Sequence record: PQ416618.1
Direction: 5' to 3' (one strand)
Origin: Escherichia phage vB_VIPECOMC06
DNA: 64,000 nucleotides
Shown in pieces: positions 16,072 through 59,076 of this stretch (within the stretch, counting starts at the first letter, position 1; every line of letters begins with the position of its first letter). The position numbers and the translations under genes are program-made. The notes beneath the pieces were generated by a model, which was not told the DNA's origin, did not search any database, and worked only from the letters and a program-made list of their open reading frames with translations.

Positions 16072-16341
16072 ATGGCTAAGAAAGAAGCAGTTGAATTTAA
16101 TCAAGATGTGCATGGTGAAGAACTGGCTAAACTAGTCAAGGAAGCTTCCGATAACAAACTTAAAATTTCTGGTTATAATGAACTGATTAAAGACATTCGT
16201 ACTCGTGCTAAAGAAGAGCTTGGCGTCGATGGAAAAATGTTTAATCGTTTGTTAGCTCTTTATCATAAAGATGCTCGTGATCAATTTGAAGCTGAAAACG
16301 AAGAGGTAGTCGAGCTTTATGACACAGTTTTCACTAAGTGA
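16072..16341 (+). CDS. dsbA: dsDNA-binding protein DsbA (late transcription)
   Basis: ATG at 16072 with GAGGT RBS gives 89 aa MAKKEAVEF… matching T4 DsbA; track start 16054 is probably too far upstream. Confidence 0.9.
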   Translation: MAKKEAVEFNQDVHGEELAKLVKEASDNKLKISGYNELIKDIRTRAKEELGVDGKMFNRLLALYHKDARDQFEAENEEVVELYDTVFTK

Positions 16342-16657
16342 TATTAAACCGGTTGATGAGGCCGGTTTATCTGAACAAGAATTAGCGGTAAAACACGATA
16401 AAGATGATATCGCTAAATTGCTTGACCGACAAGAAAACGGATTCATTATCGAATCCATGGTTGAACAATTTGGTATGTCTTATTTAGAAGCAACAACTGC
16501 TTTCTTGGAAGAAAATTCTATTCCAGAAACACAATTTGCTAAATTTATTCCTACAGGAATTGTTGAAAAAATTACAAGCGAAGCAATTGATGAAAACATG
16601 CTTCGCCCATCAGTTGCTCGTGGTGAAAAAACTAATACGTTAGATTTCTTATTATGA
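16319..16657 (+). CDS. 33: Late transcription co-activator gp33
   Basis: 112 aa; MTQFSL…ENSIPETQFAKFIP…KTNTLDFLL matches T4 gp33. Confidence 0.9.
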   Translation: MTQFSLSDIKPVDEAGLSEQELAVKHDKDDIAKLLDRQENGFIIESMVEQFGMSYLEATTAFLEENSIPETQFAKFIPTGIVEKITSEAIDENMLRPSVARGEKTNTLDFLL

Positions 16658-17337
16658 AATACGTTGTGTATAAAACTACCAATAAAATAAATGGTAAAAT
16701 TTATATAGGCGTACACAAAAAACATAAAGAGAAAGATTGGTATATTGGGTCTGGCCGCGCTATATTAGCGGCCAAAGCTAAATACGGACTAAAAAATTTT
16801 TATACTGAAGTTCTTTATGAATATGATAATGACAAGGACGCCTATAAAAAAGAAGCAGAATTGGTTAATGAAGATTTTGTTTTGCGAACTGATACTTATA
16901 ACCTGGTTCCAGGTGGTAAAGGTGGCCCTGGTAAAAAACAAAGTGATGAAGCTAAAAGGGCTATTTCACTTTCTAAAATAGGGAAACCTAGATCTGAAGA
17001 GACTAAGGCTAAAGTATCTAAAACCAGATTAGAAAGAAAAATACCATCACCTAATAAGGGTAAGAAACTATCTGAAGCTCATAAATTAGCTTTGAGTAAA
17101 GTCCGAAAAGGGCGAAAAACGAATAAGCCGATGCCTGATTCAACCAAAGAAGCTCTTAGAATAGCAAATTCAAAGCCGCATTCTAAAGAAAGAACTATTA
17201 AAAAACAAAAACCTATAATTATTGATGGTATAAAATACTCATCATGTACAGAAGTTTCGGATGTTTTTAATATTTCTGCATCTCTAGTTACGTATAGACT
17301 TAAATCTTCAAAATGGCCTGGATGGAACTATGATTAA
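16654..17337 (+). CDS. Free-standing GIY-YIG homing endonuclease (Seg-like)
   Basis: 227 aa; N-terminal GIY-YIG motifs (GKIYIG … WYIGSG), central basic repeats (NUMOD-like), C-terminal HTH-like region; inserted between 33 and 59 with overlapping stop/start at both ends. Confidence 0.85.
   Translation: MKYVVYKTTNKINGKIYIGVHKKHKEKDWYIGSGRAILAAKAKYGLKNFYTEVLYEYDNDKDAYKKEAELVNEDFVLRTDTYNLVPGGKGGPGKKQSDEAKRAISLSKIGKPRSEETKAKVSKTRLERKIPSPNKGKKLSEAHKLALSKVRKGRKTNKPMPDSTKEALRIANSKPHSKERTIKKQKPIIIDGIKYSSCTEVSDVFNISASLVTYRLKSSKWPGWNYD
16654..17337 (+). mobile_element. Putative homing endonuclease gene insertion between genes 33 and 59
   Basis: Seg-type GIY-YIG ORF at a junction that I recall as directly adjacent in T4. 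Confidence 0.5.
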
Positions 17338-17983
17338 AATACGCATGCCTCCTGACGGAGAACGTTATATTAATGGTAAATCAGTATATAAACTATACTT
17401 GATGTGCAAAAACCACTTTGGTGGTCGGTATGACGTAATCAAATATAACTGGTGCATGCGTGTTTCGGATAATGCGTATCAAAAACGCCGAGATAAATAT
17501 TTCTTTGAAAAACTAGCAGAGAAATATAAATTGAAGGAACTCACCTTGATATTTATAAGCAACTTAGTTGCTAACCAAGACGCATGGATTGGTGAGATAT
17601 CAGACGCTGATGCATTAGTTTTCTATAGGGAATATATTGGACGTCTCAAACAAGCCAAGGAGACGTTTGCTGAAGATGTACGTAACATCTACTATTTCAG
17701 TAAGAAAGTGGAAGTTAGTGCGCTTCAAGAGATATTTGATTATAATAACAACGTTCAGTCGAGCTACATATTCAAATTGCTACAAAGCAATATAATTTCA
17801 TTTGAGACTTTCTTATTGTTGGACTCATTTTTGAATATTATAGATAAGCACGACGAACTTACTGACAATTTGGTCTGGCAAAATTATTCTACCAAATTAA
17901 AGGCATATCGAAAAATACTTCAAATCGATGGAAATGCTGCTAAGAAATTGTTCATAGAAACAATCAAATCATGTAGGTATTAA
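17330..17983 (+). CDS. 59: Helicase loader gp59
   Basis: 217 aa; MIKIRMPPDGERYINGKSVYKLYLM… matches T4 gp59. Confidence 0.95.
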   Translation: MIKIRMPPDGERYINGKSVYKLYLMCKNHFGGRYDVIKYNWCMRVSDNAYQKRRDKYFFEKLAEKYKLKELTLIFISNLVANQDAWIGEISDADALVFYREYIGRLKQAKETFAEDVRNIYYFSKKVEVSALQEIFDYNNNVQSSYIFKLLQSNIISFETFLLLDSFLNIIDKHDELTDNLVWQNYSTKLKAYRKILQIDGNAAKKLFIETIKSCRY

Positions 17984-18100: not shown

Positions 18101-19000
18101 ATGTTTAAACGTAAATCTACTGCTGACCTCGCTGCTCAAATGGCTAAACTGAATGGTAACAAAGGTTTCTCTTCAGAAGATAAAGGCGAATGGAAGCTGA
18201 AACTCGATGCATCTGGTAATGGTCAAGCGGTAATTCGTTTCTTGCCAGCAAAAACTGATGATGCACTACCATTTGCAATTCTTGTTAACCACGGTTTCAA
18301 GAAAAACGGTAAATGGTATATTGAAAATTGCTCTTCTACACATGGTGATTATGACTCTTGTCCTGTATGTCAGTACATTAGTAAAAATGACCTGTACAAT
18401 ACTAACAAAACTGAATATTCTCAACTGAAACGTAAAACTTCTTATTGGGCTAATATTCTGGTTGTTAAAGACCCTCAAGCTCCAGATAACGAAGGTAAAG
18501 TATTTAAATATCGTTTCGGTAAAAAGATTTGGGACAAAATTAATGCAATGATTGCAGTTGATACTGAAATGGGTGAAACTCCAGTTGATGTTACTTGCCC
18601 GTTTGAAGGTGCTAACTTCGTTCTTAAAGCTAAGCAGGTTTCTGGTTTTAGCAACTATGACGAATCTAAATTCTTGGGTCAATCTGAAATTCCTCGTATT
18701 AATGACGAAGCATTCCAGAAAGAACTATATGACCAGATGGTAGACCTTACTACTTTGACGGCTAAAGACCAGTTCAAATCCTTTGAAAAATTAAATGAAT
18801 CTTTCGCTAAGGTTCTTGGTACTGCCGCTCTTGGTGGTGCAGCAGCCGCAGCAGCTTCTGTTGCTGATAAAGTTGCTTCTGACCTTGACGATTTTGATAA
18901 AGACATGGAAGCCTTTAGTTCTGCAAAAACTGAAGATGACTTCATGAGTTCCTCGTCTTCTGACGATGGCGACCTCGATGACCTGTTAGCTGGTCTATAA
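18101..19000 (+). CDS. 32: ssDNA-binding protein gp32
   Basis: 299 aa; [23 protein letters not shown]… with acidic C-terminus; matches T4 gp32. Confidence 0.95.
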
Positions 19001-47604: not shown

Positions 47605-48002
47605 TGTCTAATATCAATAAACTTTATTCAGATATCGACCCAGAAATGCGTATGGATTGGAACAAGGACGTTGCTCGTTCTGTAGGACTTCGTTCTATTA
47701 AAAATAGTCTTCTTGGCATAGTGACAACTAGAAAAGGCTCACGCCCCTTCGACCCTGAATTTGGATGCGATTTGGTCGACGAACTTTTCGAGAACATGAC
47801 ACCACTTACAGCCGATACGATTGAGCGTAATATCCAGGCAGCTGTTCGTAACTATGAGCCGCGCATCGACAAACTTTCTGTAAGTGTAACGCCAGTATAT
47901 GATGACTATACAGTTATAGTAGAGATTAGATTTTCGGTCGTAGACAACCCTGACGATATTGAACAAATTAAACTTCAGTTAGCGTCAAGCAATAGAGTGT
48001 AA
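47604..48002 (+). CDS. 25: Baseplate wedge subunit gp25 (LysM-like fold)
   Basis: 132 aa; MSNINKLYSDIDPEMRMDWNKDV… nearly identical to T4 gp25. Confidence 0.95.
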   Translation: MSNINKLYSDIDPEMRMDWNKDVARSVGLRSIKNSLLGIVTTRKGSRPFDPEFGCDLVDELFENMTPLTADTIERNIQAAVRNYEPRIDKLSVSVTPVYDDYTVIVEIRFSVVDNPDDIEQIKLQLASSNRV

Positions 48003-48082
48003 TGCTTCAAGGCAACCTATGTATAATGGTTTTAGGTCCTTCCGATACAGCCGGGAGATTATTAGTTAAAAGAGAGAACATT

Positions 48083-48496
48083 ATGAAGCTGGAAGATTTA
48101 CAGGAAGAGTTGGACGCAGACTTAGCTATTGATATGTCAAAGTTGCAATATGAGACGGCGAATAATGTTAAGTTATACAGCAAATGGCTACGTAAGCACT
48201 CATTTATTCGTAAAGAAATGTTGCGTATAGAGACTCAGAAGAAAACTGCTTTAAAAGCAAGATTAGACTACTACTCGGGACGAGGTGACGGTGATGAATT
48301 CAGTATGGACCGATACGAGAAATCTGAAATGAAAACTGTCCTGGCTGCAGATAAAGATGTGCTTAAAATAGAGACTACTTTACAATACTGGGGAATTTTA
48401 CTTGAGTTCTGTAGTGGTGCACTTGACGCAGTTAAGTCTCGTAGTTTTGCACTTAAACATATCCAGGATATGCGAGAATTTGAAGCGGGGCAATAA
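48083..48496 (+). CDS. uvsY: Recombination mediator UvsY
   Basis: ATG at 48083 gives 137 aa MKLEDLQEELDADLAIDMSKLQYE… matching T4 UvsY; track start 48002 is an upstream extension. Confidence 0.95.
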   Translation: MKLEDLQEELDADLAIDMSKLQYETANNVKLYSKWLRKHSFIRKEMLRIETQKKTALKARLDYYSGRGDGDEFSMDRYEKSEMKTVLAADKDVLKIETTLQYWGILLEFCSGALDAVKSRSFALKHIQDMREFEAGQ

Positions 48497-48720
48497 TGCG
48501 TTATTCAATTGAAGATGCCTTTAATAATGATGAAGAATTTGAAACTGAAATTAAATTCTTAATGGGAAAGTATCGTCTACGTCGTCAGGATATTCGTATT
48601 CTGGCAGACCACCCTTGTGGCGAAGACGTCCTTTATATTAAAGGAAAGTTTGCTGGGTACATCGACGAGTATTTTTATACAAAAGATATGGGTATCGATA
48701 TGTGTATGCGAGTGATATAA
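48496..48720 (+). CDS. Hypothetical protein, 74 aa (uvsY.-1 position)
   Basis: ORF coupled to uvsY stop. Confidence 0.55.
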   Translation: MRYSIEDAFNNDEEFETEIKFLMGKYRLRRQDIRILADHPCGEDVLYIKGKFAGYIDEYFYTKDMGIDMCMRVI

Positions 48721-48723
48721 ATA
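48716..48723 (+). promoter_or_regulatory. Late promoter for small ORF 48753
   Basis: TATAAATA about 30 nt upstream of ATG. Confidence 0.55.
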
Positions 48724-48752
48724 GATATGTAATTTCAACTTAGGAGGCAATC

Positions 48753-48920
48753 ATGTCAGATAAGATTTGTGTTGTCTGTAAAACTCCAATCGATTCTGCA
48801 TTGGTTGTTGAAACAGACAAAGGACCAGCACATCCTGGACCTTGTTATAATTATGTCCAACAAATGCCGGTTTCAGAAAGTTCAGAAGAGCAATTGAACG
48901 AAACCCAACTTTTACTATAG
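48753..48920 (+). CDS. Small Cys-containing protein, 55 aa (below ORF-track cutoff)
   Basis: ATG at 48753 after strong RBS TAGGAGG; TATAAATA about 30 nt upstream; MSDKICVVCKTPIDSALVVETDKGPAHPGPCYNYVQQ…; terminator hairpin downstream. Confidence 0.55.
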   Translation: MSDKICVVCKTPIDSALVVETDKGPAHPGPCYNYVQQMPVSESSEEQLNETQLLL

Positions 48921-48930
48921 TGTTACCTTT

Positions 48931-48972
48931 TTTGCCTATGGTTTTGGCCCTTCCAAAAAGGTCGGGCCTTTT
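48931..48972. terminator. Bidirectional terminator between small ORF 48753 (+) and uvsW.1 (-)
   Basis: GGCCC…GGGCC hairpin flanked by T runs on both sides. Confidence 0.55.
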
Positions 48973-48976
48973 TTAA

Positions 48977-49210
48977 TTAGAAGTCTTCTTCCTCATCCTC
49001 ATCATCATCGCCTTCAAGTTCGGCACGCTTACCTGCTAAGGCATCCCTGACAGAAATATCATCTGTATCTTTTAATTCCGTTTCTTTTATACGTTTCTTA
49101 TAATAAGCTTCCAATTCTTCAAGCCCTTCTAGGGTATGACAACTAGCAATTTTACCCATGAATTCGTCAATAGATGCTTCGTATAAAAATTGTTTAAATT
49201 CAAGTACCAT
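48977..49210 (-). CDS. UvsW.1-like small acidic protein
   Basis: 77 aa with acidic C-terminus; immediately downstream of uvsW, separated by a stop codon, a hairpin and its own RBS. Confidence 0.7.
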   Translation of the reverse strand: MVLEFKQFLYEASIDEFMGKIASCHTLEGLEELEAYYKKRIKETELKDTDDISVRDALAGKRAELEGDDDEDEEEDF

Positions 49211-49221
49211 TTTTATCTCCT

Positions 49222-49237
49222 AAGGGCCGAAGCCCTT
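49222..49237 (-). terminator. Hairpin between uvsW and uvsW.1
   Basis: AAGGGCCGAAGCCCTT immediately after uvsW stop, followed on minus strand by RBS and ATG of uvsW.1. Confidence 0.45.
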
Positions 49238-50750
49238 ATAAATTAATTGTTTTCATTACATAGTTAAATTTCTCATCAGCGTAACGTTGGATACGATCAA
49301 TACCGTGTTTTAACAAGTAATTAAGATGAGTATACTTCTTTTTAGTATTTAATGATTTAGGTTTTACACCTGCGTCATCGATGAGATCCCAAACTGTAGC
49401 AACAGCTTTAGAACCATGCTTACGAAGCACACGACCTACGGTTTGAAGTACGATAATTTTTGATTTAACACCATGGGCAAAAATAACATGATGAAGATTC
49501 TTGACTGAAATACCAGTAGAGAATACTCCATATGATGCGACAATAATAATGCCTTTACCATTTTCTGCCATGACTTTAAGCGCGTTACGTGTTTCAGTAT
49601 CAACTTCACCTGATACGTAATAAACTTTTTCGTATCCAAGCTCTTTAATAGCTTCAAATATTTCTTTACCGTGTGTAACGTGTTTAAACATTACAAAGGC
49701 GTTCTCGTCTTTCTTAGCCAATTTGACTGAAAGTTGAGCAATCCACTTTGTACGACGTTTTAGCCCGGTAATAATTTTAACTTCTTCTTGGTATGTTTTA
49801 CCTTTTAATTTAACAGTGAATTCGTCCGGATAACGAAGGAAAATACTATTAATCTTAAGCTCAGTTACTTGTCCGTCTTCCATTAATTTAGACGTGCTAA
49901 CAGGACGGAAGATTTCGCCGAACATACCTACATACTGCATTACATTGGCTTTTCCGTCTCTTAATGAGCCAGATAAACCGAATTTAAACATGCAATTATT
50001 TAATCCTGAGATGATTGAAGAAATACTTTTGCCTGTTGCTAAGTGGCATTCATCGTTCATCATCATACCGAATTGAGAGAACCATTCTTTAGGCTGCTTA
50101 ACTACCGTTTGCCATGTGCCAACAATAATTGGAGCGTCGTTTTTAGATTTGTCTGCTTTATCAGCACCACCGCCAATTTTCTTAATCATCGAATGACTAA
50201 ACAAGCGGTAATCAACAAAATCATTAGCCATCTGGGTTGTCAATGCTGTTGTAGGGACGATAATGAGAATTTTACCTTCATAGTTCTCTAGATAATATCG
50301 AGCTAAAAGTGCTTGGATTAGTGATTTACCTGCTGATGTCGGAAGGTTTAAAATTCGACGACGATTAACTAGTCCTTCGTATACTGCATCTTTTTGATAC
50401 CAATGTGGTTCGATTTTAGAGTTGCCCGAATAAATTTCTTGTTTAGAAAGCCATTCGTCAAAATCTTCCCTGGTAAGGTCTTCGGTTTCAAAGATTTTAG
50501 GGTCAATCCATACAGAATAACTCATATTGTTACAGAACTTTTTTATTTGTCCTACAAGTCCATATGGTAACAAACGGTTGTAATCTAAAAGTCGAATTCT
50601 ACCATCCCATTGCCCATAGCGATATTTTGGGTTAAATTTATACCCGTCAGCTTCAAAGCTAAAAAAGTCACGAAGTTCGTAAAACGTACTTTCGTCGCAT
50701 TCAATGCGCACGTGACTAAAATCATAAAAATGTACTTTAATGTCAGTCAT
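49236..50750 (-). CDS. uvsW: UvsW RNA-DNA and DNA-DNA helicase (SF2)
   Basis: 504 aa; MTDIKVHFYDFSHVRIECDESTFYELRDFFSFEADGYKF…, Walker A PTSAGKS, DECH box; matches T4 UvsW. Confidence 0.95.
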   Translation of the reverse strand: MTDIKVHFYDFSHVRIECDESTFYELRDFFSFEADGYKFNPKYRYGQWDGRIRLLDYNRLLPYGLVGQIKKFCNNMSYSVWIDPKIFETEDLTREDFDEWLSKQEIYSGNSKIEPHWYQKDAVYEGLVNRRRILNLPTSAGKSLIQALLARYYLENYEGKILIIVPTTALTTQMANDFVDYRLFSHSMIKKIGGGADKADKSKNDAPIIVGTWQTVVKQPKEWFSQFGMMMNDECHLATGKSISSIISGLNNCMFKFGLSGSLRDGKANVMQYVGMFGEIFRPVSTSKLMEDGQVTELKINSIFLRYPDEFTVKLKGKTYQEEVKIITGLKRRTKWIAQLSVKLAKKDENAFVMFKHVTHGKEIFEAIKELGYEKVYYVSGEVDTETRNALKVMAENGKGIIIVASYGVFSTGISVKNLHHVIFAHGVKSKIIVLQTVGRVLRKHGSKAVATVWDLIDDAGVKPKSLNTKKKYTHLNYLLKHGIDRIQRYADEKFNYVMKTINL

Positions 50751-58431: not shown

Positions 58432-58439
58432 TATTTATA
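58432..58439 (-). promoter_or_regulatory. Late promoter for gene 22
   Basis: TATAAATA on minus strand about 31 nt upstream of gp22 start, overlapping gp21 stop. Confidence 0.7.
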
Positions 58440-59076
58440 ATGCTTTTAAACTCTCTGCGAGAGCTTTAAATGCTTCGTCAGCACTGTTTTTGGTGATTTC
58501 CACCGAATTTTCTGATTCTGATATTTGTTTAGGAGTAACCCAAGCATCTGGAGCAGAAGGTCCCCATACGGCATCTACGCCGACGGTTAATTTAAATCCT
58601 TCGTTCACGATACGGTACCCTTTATTGGTGTCGGTTAAAGAACCAAGACCACGAGAGGAAACACCTGGAATCCAACCAGCTCGTATATTAGCAGCTAATT
58701 TATCGCCGGGACCATGGTCGCCTTCAATAATTCTAGCACGTCCATATACATCGTTTCCTTTCCACCACATATCTTCAATAATGATAGCGGCTTGCATAGG
58801 GTCAACATTTGCACGAGGTGGATGGTTTAATTCTCCAAGGGCTTGTTTGGTTGCAACTTGTTCTTTAATATAGTCACTTACTGCTTTTTCCAAAACACGT
58901 TTAGGATATAAACGTTTATTTCGGTTAACAACCTCTGCCTGAAGAAAAATACCTTCTATATAAAGCCCTGGTTTTAAGCCAGAATCTTTTCCATCATGAG
59001 ATTCCAACATTGGAACGCCATCAATAATCTCACCGGGTTGACCCCAAGTTTCAATAAGTAACTCGGGTTTATTCAT
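58435..59076 (-). CDS. 21: Prohead core protease gp21
   Basis: 213 aa; …LIETWGQPGEIIDGVPMLESHDGKD… matches T4 gp21. Confidence 0.95.
   Translation of the reverse strand: MNKPELLIETWGQPGEIIDGVPMLESHDGKDSGLKPGLYIEGIFLQAEVVNRNKRLYPKRVLEKAVSDYIKEQVATKQALGELNHPPRANVDPMQAAIIIEDMWWKGNDVYGRARIIEGDHGPGDKLAANIRAGWIPGVSSRGLGSLTDTNKGYRIVNEGFKLTVGVDAVWGPSAPDAWVTPKQISESENSVEITKNSADEAFKALAESLKAL

Follow-up and report, generated by a model that had tools for sequence, protein, structure and literature searches.

Between uvsY.-1 and the convergent gene uvsW.1 in the genome of Escherichia phage vB_VIPECOMC06 (PQ416618.1) lies a short interval for which a first list of open reading frames gave no gene. The question is whether this interval encodes a protein and, if so, what kind of protein it is. 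A preliminary description placed in it a late promoter, a ribosome-binding site (RBS), a 55-codon open reading frame (ORF) with a cysteine motif and a terminator. In the window that we analyzed, a stretch of 64,000 nucleotides, all four elements are found, and the gene order agrees with a location between uvsY.-1 and uvsW.1 (Table 1). The ORF encodes 55 amino acids followed by a stop codon, with the product MSDKICVVCKTPIDSALVVETDKGPAHPGPCYNYVQQMPVSESSEEQLNETQLLL. This protein matches the Pfam family PF10886 (DUF2685) over profile positions 1-55 of 55 with a score of 110.4 bits against a cutoff of 25 (E = 4.6e-32), as well as the PHROGs family phrog_1043 (E = 4.9e-30), and it contains the entire family residue pattern, C-x2-C-K ... 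G-x2-H-x-G-x-C, E42 and the C-terminus E-[TV]-[QE]-L-L-[LMI].

Table 1. Features of the uvsY.-2 locus, with positions in the 64,000-nucleotide window
Feature	Position	Strand	Basis
uvsY middle promoter, MotA box aaTGCTTca ... TATAAT (48022-48027)	48002..48027	+	sequence
uvsY.-1, 74 aa, upstream neighbor	48496..48720	+	phrog_1541 E = 7e-45; T4, RB51 annotation
Late promoter box TATAAATA, gp55-type	48716..48723	+	sequence; conserved in relatives
RBS TAGGAGG, 5 nt ahead of the ATG at 48753	48741..48747	+	sequence
uvsY.-2 ortholog CDS	48753..48920	+	Pfam PF10886 DUF2685, phrog_1043, T4 identity, dN/dS
Putative CCHC core: C6 48768-48770, C9 48777-48779, H27 48831-48833, C31 48843-48845	48768..48845	+	conservation; AlphaFold2
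Acidic low-confidence tail, residues about 40-55	48870..48917	+	column counts; pLDDT 57-66
Predicted intrinsic terminator: hairpin 48946-48968 and T6 48969-48974	48946..48974	+	folding; relatives; SA79RD annotation
uvsW.1, 77 aa, convergent neighbor	48977..49210	-	Pfam UvsW-1 E = 9.4e-27; synteny

A comparison with uvsY.-2 of phage T4 (NP_049797, UniProt Q00778) had been proposed, and it identifies the gene as an ortholog: the T4 protein is also 55 residues long, is 91% identical and has the same neighbors, uvsY.-1 upstream and the convergent uvsW.1 downstream. The two proteins are separated by five conservative substitutions (A26V, V35I, Q36K, Q37E, M38L), while the tail, SESSEEQLNETQLLL, is identical in both. 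The T4 locus shares the TATAAATA box and has a similar terminator hairpin, whose loop is AAAAA here and, inverted, TTTTT in T4; nothing functional sets the two orthologs apart. The products of phages ST0 and SF are 100% identical to the protein studied here, and the DNA around the ORF is 98.9% identical to that of Mosigvirus genomes (RB69-like relatives of T4). The identity of the ORF as the Mosigvirus ortholog of T4 uvsY.-2 is nearly certain, and so is the anatomy of its transcription unit.

The gene had been called unannotated, which is true only of the first list of ORFs. The coding sequence is annotated in nearly every related GenBank record, including those of T4 and RB51, in which the gene at the matching map position is named uvsY.-2, and the SA79RD record annotates the promoter and terminators as well. 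uvsY.-2 is therefore already known from GenBank, from Pfam and PHROGs, and from the T4 literature. Since the late promoter and the terminator are likewise in these records and that literature, the discovery value of the locus is small. What is added here, as predictions from sequence, is a CCHC treble-clef-like finger, an acidic tail that bears the invariant motif [VLIM]-x-E and a conserved E-T-Q-L-L-L end, and a U-tract that is confined to the plus strand.

With only 55 codons, and missing from the first ORF list, the frame could have been a chance opening in a spacer that contains only a promoter and a terminator. The probability of this is close to nil, as it is ruled out by conservation, by dN/dS and by published T4 proteomics, in addition to the DUF2685 match. 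Lack of conservation in related phages had been named as a possible refutation of the gene; the frame is in fact conserved in 1251 phage records. Of the 19 nucleotide differences from T4 uvsY.-2, 14 fall at third codon positions, and dN is 0.044 and dS 0.516. The resulting ratio of 0.085 (about 0.09) points to strong purifying selection on uvsY.-2, and the earlier view of a genuine gene for a small cysteine-motif protein holds. Among 36 family representatives used for column counts, which reach down to 36% identity, residues C6, C9, H27, G29, C31 and E42 are invariant. The T4 protein has been detected by mass-spectrometric proteomics and assigned to the late class (PMC9697503). Knock-down of the T4 gene was scored "Semi-Fit", with complementation (PMC11879866); this phenotype is mild, so uvsY.-2 would have an accessory role on laboratory hosts. 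Few T4 genes that lack any assigned function show, as uvsY.-2 does, a measurable, complemented fitness effect, and the gene is conserved in the sampled T4-like (Straboviridae) phages of several gammaproteobacterial genera at a length of only 55 residues. An Rfam scan of the whole window detected no RNA family.

An exhaustive HMMER search returned 34 representatives of the family, and a search with the family profile returned 71 homologs. These are stand-alone proteins of about 55 residues, apart from over-extended gene calls and one subfamily of 126 residues (P0031, phrog_26998), which carries an N-terminal extension of 72 residues that resembles neither uvsY.-1 nor any annotated sequence. An RBS-like AGGA lies internally in the genes of this subfamily, before the ATG of the DUF2685 portion, and for this reason the subfamily is uninformative with respect to function.

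The order uvsY, uvsY.-1, uvsY.-2 and convergent uvsW.1/uvsW is the same in T4, RB51 and SA79RD; in the window, uvsW.1 is followed by uvsW (49236-50750, minus strand). A scan of IMG/VR with a degenerate DNA pattern picked up 46 genuine loci besides 2 false ones. In about 40 of these genuine loci, uvsY.-2 comes after uvsY or gp25, with convergent uvsW.1 and/or uvsW next, and the same placement is found in Tevenvirinae, Twarogvirinae, Biquartavirus, Krischvirus and KVP40-like phages. An exception is Citrobacter phage Ci1, which has its uvsY.-2 homolog between dda and gene 32. The gene uvsY.-1 is missing from most T4-like loci that retain uvsY.-2. The fixed place of uvsY.-2 beside uvsW.1 and uvsW may be due to nothing more than the collinear layout that T4-like core genomes share in general.

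Expression of uvsY.-2 from its own late promoter, as suggested earlier, agrees with the distribution of the TATAAATA box, which overlaps the stop codon of uvsY.-1 (TAA, 48718-48720). The window contains 19 copies of the box, compared with 6.7 +/- 2.4 expected, and 0 of 100 shuffles reached 19. Of 41 distinct related upstream regions, 36 have a late-promoter-like box 15-60 nt ahead of uvsY.-2 (background 1.7%), and the box lies at an equal offset in T4, RB51, SA79RD (where it is annotated) and Acinetobacter phage KARL-1. Late boxes are placed at -13 to -6 relative to the start site (Nolan et al. 2006, PMC1524935), from which a transcription start near 48729 is predicted. The strong RBS proposed for the gene is confirmed, and T4 uvsY.-2 has GAGGAG at the equivalent place.

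The description of the locus as a self-contained unit expressed only late needs to be corrected. No terminator separates uvsY.-2 from the upstream genes uvsY and uvsY.-1, and in T4 the mRNA of uvsY.-2 is classed as "middle" and its protein as "late" (PMC9697503 supplements). A MotA-box site, which the SA79RD record lists as a middle promoter of the T4 type, precedes uvsY and is the likely source of a read-through mRNA across uvsY.-1 and uvsY.-2. Accordingly worded, the model of expression is that uvsY.-2 would be transcribed from its own gp55/gp33/gp45-dependent late promoter and probably also by read-through from the uvsY middle promoter, that the mRNA would be translated from the strong RBS, and that transcripts of the plus strand would end at the hairpin and U-tract in the gap shared with the convergent uvsW.1.

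This gap is 56 nt long, ends at the uvsW.1 stop codon (48977-48979) and houses the terminator. The GC-rich hairpin (GGCCC-TT-CC-AAAAA-GG-TC-GGGCC) followed by T6 is a predicted intrinsic (rho-independent) terminator for the plus strand. For both strands, the minimum-free-energy structure is this hairpin, at -13.2 kcal/mol (z -1.6) on the plus and -14.7 kcal/mol (z -2.9) on the minus strand. It went undetected in a simple scan for terminators, probably since its stem is split by a 2x2 internal mismatch into runs too short for the threshold of the scan. Among 39 distinct downstream regions, 30 have a hairpin and a T-run 3' of the gene, with stems that differ in sequence and stay complementary, i.e., covary. 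The locus had been credited with a bidirectional terminator, and such a terminator was also predicted by TransTerm (Nolan et al. 2006, PMC1524935). In the minus-strand RNA, however, the hairpin is followed by AAAACC, so that the U-tract is found on the plus strand only, and an A-rich stretch 5' of the stem is present in 0 of 39 related loci. The hairpin is therefore not a canonical bidirectional terminator.

The cysteine motif noticed earlier, a C-x2-C pair with a further downstream cysteine, is present, but the invariant His27 had been overlooked and the ligand set is C-x2-C ... H-x3-C. Its four residues, C6, C9, H27 and C31, are conserved in 36 of 36 family representatives. In the AlphaFold2 model (mean pLDDT 78.6; 81-89 for residues 1-40), a beta-hairpin spans residues 19-26 and a helix residues 30-37, and the second ligand pair, H27-x3-C31, is positioned at the N-terminus of the helix. 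On the basis of ligand conservation and this model, residues from about 4 to 38 constitute a single putative CCHC zinc finger of treble-clef-like type. The term "zinc-ribbon-like" does not fit this arrangement: a zinc ribbon needs two C-x2-C knuckles and a three-stranded sheet, whereas uvsY.-2 has only one knuckle, and H27 and C31 are at the start of the modeled helix.

In Foldseek comparisons with the PDB, the best matches were LIM half-domains and other treble-clef fingers, with probabilities up to 0.90 and non-significant E-values (at least 0.5); comparison with BFVD retrieved just uncharacterized T4-like homologs. When solved structures were searched by sequence, the single protein returned only noise, and the family profile gave one weak match, to the C-terminal zinc finger of Vps39 (E = 0.004, 26 residues). 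The weak Pfam matches of the family are to zinc-finger families throughout. Treble-clef fingers that serve in protein binding, such as LIM half-domains, MYM-type fingers and the Vps39 finger, have the N-terminal C-x2-C knuckle, the beta-hairpin and the last two ligands at the start of a helix that are modeled for uvsY.-2. In contrast to these, uvsY.-2 has a single putative finger with C-C-H-C ligands spaced x2/x17/x3, and the matches are weak; we do not claim kinship by descent.

An acidic tail extends from the putative finger to the C-terminus. Its net charge ranges from -2 to -7 in all 36 representatives, and its low model confidence (pLDDT 57-66) is consistent with disorder, that is, with a flexible tail. 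The motif [VLIM]40-x-E42-[SN], with a small or polar residue next, is found in 36/36 representatives. The C-terminus is conserved as L48-x-E50-[TV]-[QE]-L-L-[LMI]; in the [LVI]48-x-E50 portion the hydrophobic residue is present in 35/36 and the glutamate in 30/36 representatives, and 33/36 end in three hydrophobic residues, [LM]-[LI]-[LMI]. The CCHC ligands, the E42 motif and the hydrophobic tip are concrete and cheap targets for assigning a function to uvsY.-2. A similar Ser-rich, acidic and Leu-containing composition led us to consider mimicry of the gp32 C-terminal tail; this idea was dropped because the segment of gp32 mapped as binding Dda is a different, more internal helix (PMC11551737).

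As a net acidic protein, uvsY.-2 is unlikely to bind nucleic acid. Of the functions considered, we tentatively favor that of a small protein-protein adaptor or competitor acting late in infection, a role that we regard as possible but less probable than not. In such a role one partner would be held by the zinc finger. The hydrophobic tip and the acidic tail that carries it would fit into a pocket on some highly conserved protein of the phage or the host, in a manner likened to that of the C-terminal tails of T4 replication and late-transcription proteins. The proposal rests on the charge of the tail, its hydrophobic ends in 33 of 36 representatives, its low model confidence and the stand-alone nature of the 71 homologs. 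Taken as a whole, the explanation of the locus by a uvsY.-2 ortholog with its own late promoter and a finger with a tail is very probably right, the adaptor role being its least certain part. A search of the literature for T4 interactome data gave nothing relevant.

A more specific proposal, which seems rather unlikely, makes the DUF2685 tail a docking or cleavage module, in which [VLIM]-x-E42 would be a site for the prohead protease gp21 and/or a hub protein such as the sliding clamp gp45 would receive the E-T-Q-L-L-L-COOH tip. This would make uvsY.-2 a regulator of the late phase that had so far gone unrecognized in T4-like phages, and one that couples head maturation to DNA replication, recombination or late transcription. 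Considered separately, docking of the C-terminal tail in the hydrophobic pocket of the gp45 clamp, in the manner of the gp43, gp33 and gp55 C-termini, is improbable. The architecture is that of the T4 clamp ligands, a flexible acidic linker that runs out, at the C-terminus or close to it, in a row of hydrophobic residues, of which uvsY.-2 has three at the extreme end. The gp45 pocket is filled by three consecutive hydrophobic residues (PMC6212786), and clamp-binding tails are interchangeable and are carried on divergent flexible linkers (PMC2988020). The gp33 of this phage ends in TLDFLL, T4 gp43 ends in SLDFLFG and T4 gp55 carries SLDFLYEAND; the tail motif of uvsY.-2 is kept across phages that infect Escherichia, Acinetobacter, Aeromonas and Vibrio, which would be expected of a motif whose target is a conserved phage-encoded protein. 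However, the uvsY.-2 tail (NETQLLL) lacks the strict motif of the gp43, gp55 and gp33 tails, [ST]-L-D-F-L-[FYL]. Its family consensus reads [TV]-[QE]-L-L-[LMI], in which an aromatic residue and an L-D pair are both missing; only the general acidic-plus-hydrophobic character is shared. In addition, the gp45 gene lies outside the window, and the literature examined contains no report of an interaction between uvsY.-2 and gp45. As a clamp ligand, uvsY.-2 would compete with gp43, gp33 or gp55 or recruit a new partner to DNA-loaded clamps, and the late balance of replication, late transcription and recombination could be tuned in this way. In another reading, the tail would be cleaved by gp21. It is modeled as disordered and has two conserved [LIVM]-x-E motifs (E42 and E50), and gp21 cleaves behind the Glu of L/I-x-E and, with weaker activity, of x-x-E (PMC9026906; PMC12991175). 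uvsY.-2 would enter the prohead core or otherwise meet gp21 and be cut after E42 and/or E50. This would free the finger from the tail, in the way known for internal proteins and scaffold components, and make uvsY.-2 a minor head-maturation component or a decoy. The late promoter resembles that of head genes, late expression being common to gp21 substrates and uvsY.-2, and the gp21 gene lies within the window (58435-59076). Nevertheless, the motif is just three residues long, the first site in T4 and in this phage has Val instead of the canonical Leu or Ile, and 6/36 representatives lack Glu at the second. Unlike gp21 substrates, uvsY.-2 has no N-terminus resembling a capsid-targeting sequence; gp21 is normally active only inside proheads, and uvsY.-2 is not among the head or core components in reviews of the T4 head (PMC9026906). 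Such cleavage is very unlikely.

A role in counter-defense or host takeover appears quite unlikely as well. In this case uvsY.-2 would inhibit a host protein, for instance a late-triggered defense or a conserved machine like the beta clamp or RNA polymerase. Inhibitors and mimics are frequent among the small acidic proteins of phages, and the Q-L-L-L end is loosely similar to bacterial beta-clamp motifs, for example, Q-L-x-L-F. The conservation of the tail in phages of several gammaproteobacterial genera is in line with such a role, and Adler et al. listed uvsY.-2 among the genes that possibly point to inhibition of host defense (PMC11879866 supplement). Against it, uvsY.-2 is fixed in the conserved core and not in the variable, early-expressed accessory clusters that are usual for T4 anti-defense genes, and structure, profile and Pfam searches revealed no homology to any known inhibitor. 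E. coli YacG is a protein of about 60 residues with one four-Cys zinc finger and an acidic C-terminal tail that inserts into its partner, and it inhibits DNA gyrase. There is no detectable sequence or fold match between YacG and uvsY.-2, and by analogy only, the two are alike in overall plan.

The 55-codon ORF downstream of uvsY and uvsY.-1 is a real gene, the ortholog of T4 uvsY.-2, and is a member of the DUF2685 (uvsY.-2) family by all tests run, namely its score against the profile, the residues invariant in the family, and its orthologous map position. It matches the full Pfam DUF2685 profile with 110.4 bits (cutoff 25, E = 4.6e-32) and also matches PHROG 1043. The surrounding 901 bases share 98-99% identity with Escherichia phages ST0, JS09, F2, SF, and others; a near-identical relative, vB_EcoM_SA79RD, is classed in the Straboviridae, Tevenvirinae, Mosigvirus (RB69-like group). 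ST0 and SF encode exactly this protein; those of T4 and RB51, where the CDS is named uvsY.-2 and has the same neighbours, share 91% identity with it. By tblastn, the frame is conserved in 1251 phage records. Of the 19 nucleotides at which the ORF differs from that of T4, 14 occupy third codon positions (dN = 0.044, dS = 0.516, ratio 0.085). In T4, uvsY.-2 has a mild fitness role, being scored 'Semi-Fit' in a dCas13d knock-down screen, with a defect that could be complemented (PMC11879866).

When 1.84 billion cluster representatives were searched exhaustively with HMMER, 34 family representatives were recovered, and a profile search returned 71 homologs, of which the source-named ones come from T4-like phages, with one exception. 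This record, 'DUF2685 domain-containing protein, partial [Enterococcus faecalis]' (NCBI, P0003), is nearly identical to T4 uvsY.-2 and is probably T4-type phage DNA contaminating an assembly. Scanning IMG/VR with a degenerate DNA pattern that represents the spacing of the zinc ligands gave 46 true loci, encoding 30 distinct proteins on contigs that are nearly all 90-235 kb long.

Features of the uvsY.-2 locus and other genes in the window
Feature	Position	Strand	Remarks
Late-promoter box TATAAATA	48716-48723	+	overlaps TAA stop of upstream 74-codon ORF (uvsY.-1)
Ribosome-binding site TAGGAGG	48741-48747	+	read from sequence
uvsY.-2 ortholog ORF, 55 codons	48753-48920	+	ATG at 48753; MSDKICVVCKTPIDSALVVETDKGPAHPGPCYNYVQQMPVSESSEEQLNETQLLL
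Hairpin GGCCC-TT-CC-AAAAA-GG-TC-GGGCC	48946-48968	+	followed by T6 at 48969-48974
Stop codon of convergent 77-codon ORF (UvsW.1)	48977-48979	-	
MotA-box middle promoter aaTGCTTca ... TATAAT	48002-48027	+	5' of uvsY; TGCTT 48003-48007, TATAAT 48022-48027
UvsY	48002/48083-48496	+	Pfam
UvsW.1	48977-49210	-	Pfam
UvsW helicase ORF	49236-50750	-	Pfam
gp33	16319-16657	+	
Homing-endonuclease ORF, 227 aa	16654-17337	+	GIY-YIG, I-TevI-like (Seg-type)
gp59	17330-17983		
gp32	18101-19000	+	

The late box, strong ribosome-binding site, ORF, and hairpin all lie where the preliminary description placed them. Its term 'unannotated' applies only to the ORF track then used, since T4, RB51, and SA79RD carry the annotation and the terminator was described by Nolan et al. 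2006; an annotated CDS covers almost all tblastn matches, and the ortholog, its late promoter, and its terminator are already known. In the SA79RD record, the TATAAATA box is marked as a late promoter of the T4 type, and terminators are placed on both strands 3' of uvsY.-2. This box occurs 19 times in the window versus 6.7 +/- 2.4 expected (0/100 shuffles reached 19). A strict late box is found 30-37 nt 5' of the uvsY.-2 ATG in the window, T4, RB51, SA79RD, and Acinetobacter phage KARL-1, and a late-type box ([TA]ATAAATA or CTAAATA) lies 15-60 nt upstream in 36 of 41 distinct IMG/VR upstream regions, against a background of 1.7% among 45-nt windows drawn at random from these loci. Given the published placement of the T4-type late box at -13 to -6 relative to the start (PMC1524935), late transcription of uvsY.-2 is predicted to begin near 48729.

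The unit that the preliminary description called complete and compact does have its own promoter, ribosome-binding site, and terminator, and is predicted to work as T4 late genes do, with an intrinsic terminator at its end. However, no terminator is present between uvsY/uvsY.-1 and uvsY.-2, a middle promoter precedes uvsY, and the unit is not isolated from these upstream genes. Read-through from the MotA-box promoter would account for the 'middle' mRNA class of T4 uvsY.-2, whose product (Q00778) appears in a time-resolved proteome, where the protein is classed as late and its mRNA as middle (PMC9697503 supplements). Some Tequatrovirus-type genomes carry ~100-125 additional bases between uvsY.-1 and uvsY.-2 (RB51, L001 ~1880-2000; IMG/VR loci L020, L021, L049); in RB51 these include a 30-codon micro-ORF, MTNYKEVFRLLAEMEACLKRVQEMRFKMGL, ending within the late-promoter box.

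The hairpin is the minimum-free-energy fold on both strands (+, -13.2 kcal/mol, z -1.6; -, -14.7 kcal/mol, z -2.9). It escaped a simple terminator scan, probably since the stem, split by a 2x2 internal mismatch, falls into runs below the scan threshold. A GC-rich hairpin with a T-run follows uvsY.-2 in 30 of 39 distinct loci, and its stems vary yet remain complementary (GCCCCTC/GAGGGGC, GGCTCTCC/GGAGAGCC, GGCCAGC/GCTGGCC, GCCCCATCA/TGATGGGGC), which provides covariation evidence for the structure. For T4 and five relatives, RB69 among them, a terminator conserved between uvsW.1 and the gene converging on it has been described, and its bidirectionality is a published prediction (Nolan et al. 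2006, PMC1524935). For uvsY.-2, the hairpin and T6 are a canonical terminator. An A-rich 5' flank is found in 0/39 distinct loci. This flank is rich in T, and RNA from the minus strand therefore lacks a U-tract behind the hairpin, which is at best a non-canonical terminator for uvsW.1. Among close relatives the loop flips to its reverse complement while the stem is unchanged (CC-AAAAA-GG in the window versus CC-TTTTT-GG in T4; RB51 is also cited), with further cases in the IMG/VR pairs L013/L018, L015/L019, and L022/L042 (GAAA versus TTTC, ATTC versus GAAT, and ATT versus AAT). The pattern suggests that small inversions of the hairpin recur, which template switching at a palindrome would be expected to produce.

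T4 and RB51 share the gene order of the window: 26, 25, uvsY, uvsY.-1, uvsY.-2, then convergent uvsW.1 and uvsW. The order around uvsY.-2 is kept across five Straboviridae lineages, and in ~40 of the 46 IMG/VR loci (L010-L057) the gene follows uvsY or gp25 and faces uvsW.1 and/or uvsW. Because uvsY.-1 was detected in only ~10 of these 46, uvsY.-2 is the more conserved of the two. In Citrobacter phage Ci1, uvsY.-2 lies between dda and gene 32. The neighbourhood hints at DNA metabolism, but the fixed position may be mere core-genome collinearity. In Acinetobacter phages (KARL-1; avDM2 and Skers are also cited), uvsY is not at the locus and uvsY.-2 directly follows gp25.

The mechanically called uvsY ORF of 164 aa, annotated likewise in some GenBank relatives, starts at an ATG (48002) that lies 5' of the MotA-box promoter, and the Pfam match begins at its residue 36; the T4-equivalent start is ATG 48083 (137 aa). 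In T4, the uvsY promoter region also serves as the origin oriF. Elsewhere in the window, a homing-endonuclease ORF lies between gp33 and gp59, overlapping both; genes 33 and 59 are presumably adjacent in T4, in which case it would be a mobile-element insertion.

In an alignment of 36 representatives (identity down to 36%), C6, C9, H27, G29, C31, and E42 are invariant and K10, G24, and L53 nearly so. The three cysteines noted previously were correct, but the invariant His27 was missed; the putative zinc-ligand set is C-x2-C-x17-H-x3-C. An AlphaFold2 model on this alignment (mean pLDDT 78.6; 81-89 over residues 1-40) predicts an N-terminal knuckle, a beta-hairpin (19-26), and a helix (30-37), with H27 and C31 on the helix first turn, so that the putative CCHC finger is modelled as a treble clef and not as the zinc ribbon suggested earlier. 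Foldseek gave weak PDB matches only (E >= 0.5), consistently to treble-clef fingers: LIM half-domains (probability up to 0.90), GATA, RING, PHD, and small ribosomal zinc proteins. The family profile matches the Vps39 C-terminal zinc finger (E = 0.004) and a MYM finger (E = 0.7), sub-threshold Pfam matches of family members are mostly to zinc-finger families, and a BFVD search with the model returned only uncharacterised T4-like homologs. The finger resembles protein-binding treble-clef fingers but fits no named family. With 8 acidic and 3 basic residues in the whole protein, nucleic-acid binding is unlikely.

The model is of low confidence over residues 39-55 (pLDDT 57-66), a stretch that is acidic in all members (net charge -2 to -7). 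This stretch contains [VLIM]40-x-E42-[SNGDT], with the hydrophobic residue and Glu in 36/36, and [LVI]48-x-E50-[TVI]-[QE]-[LM]-[LI]-[LMI], nearly always at the extreme C-terminus. No informative DUF2685 fusions were found among HMMER representatives, profile homologs, or the extended subfamily. In the phrog_26998 subfamily (Logan SRR24752792 contig, L009 487-867), a 126-aa ORF directly after uvsY joins a 72-residue N-terminal extension in frame to DUF2685; an AGGA located 6 nt 5' of the internal ATG hints that the 55-aa protein may still be produced on its own.

The most likely role that we infer for uvsY.-2, though at low confidence, is that of an adaptor between proteins, or a competitor for such contacts, late in infection; its conserved acidic tail with its hydrophobic tip would dock end-on into a pocket on a partner that is itself highly conserved. 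Ligands of the gp45 clamp have this architecture: their linker is acidic, and the clamp pocket is filled by three consecutive hydrophobic residues (PMC6212786; PMC2988020). However, uvsY.-2 lacks the [ST]-L-D-F-L-[FYL] consensus, as compared with gp43 (...EEKASLDFLFG), gp55 (...SPSLDFLYEAND), and gp33 of this phage (...TNTLDFLL), and so falls outside the gp45 ligands; that it binds the clamp is unlikely. A host-directed inhibitor or counter-defence factor is possible but unsupported, and we regard it as quite improbable. Processing by gp21, which cleaves after Glu in L/I-x-E (PMC9026906; PMC12991175), would fit the two conserved motifs of this type in the tail, but the motif is tiny, the first site carries Val in T4-type phages, the second lacks Glu in 6/36, and there is no sign of uvsY.-2 entering the prohead, which makes a gp21 substrate very improbable. 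For uvsY.-2, one of the conserved 'known unknowns' of T4 and one that affects fitness, the invariant CCHC ligands, E42 motif, and C-terminal LLL tip offer a direct way to test function.

Acidic tails with hydrophobic tips are also found in the DNA-metabolism proteins UvsW.1, gp33, and gp32; that of UvsW.1 (...GDDDEDEEEDF) is an acidic run ending in Phe, like those of the SSB and T7 gp2.5 type.
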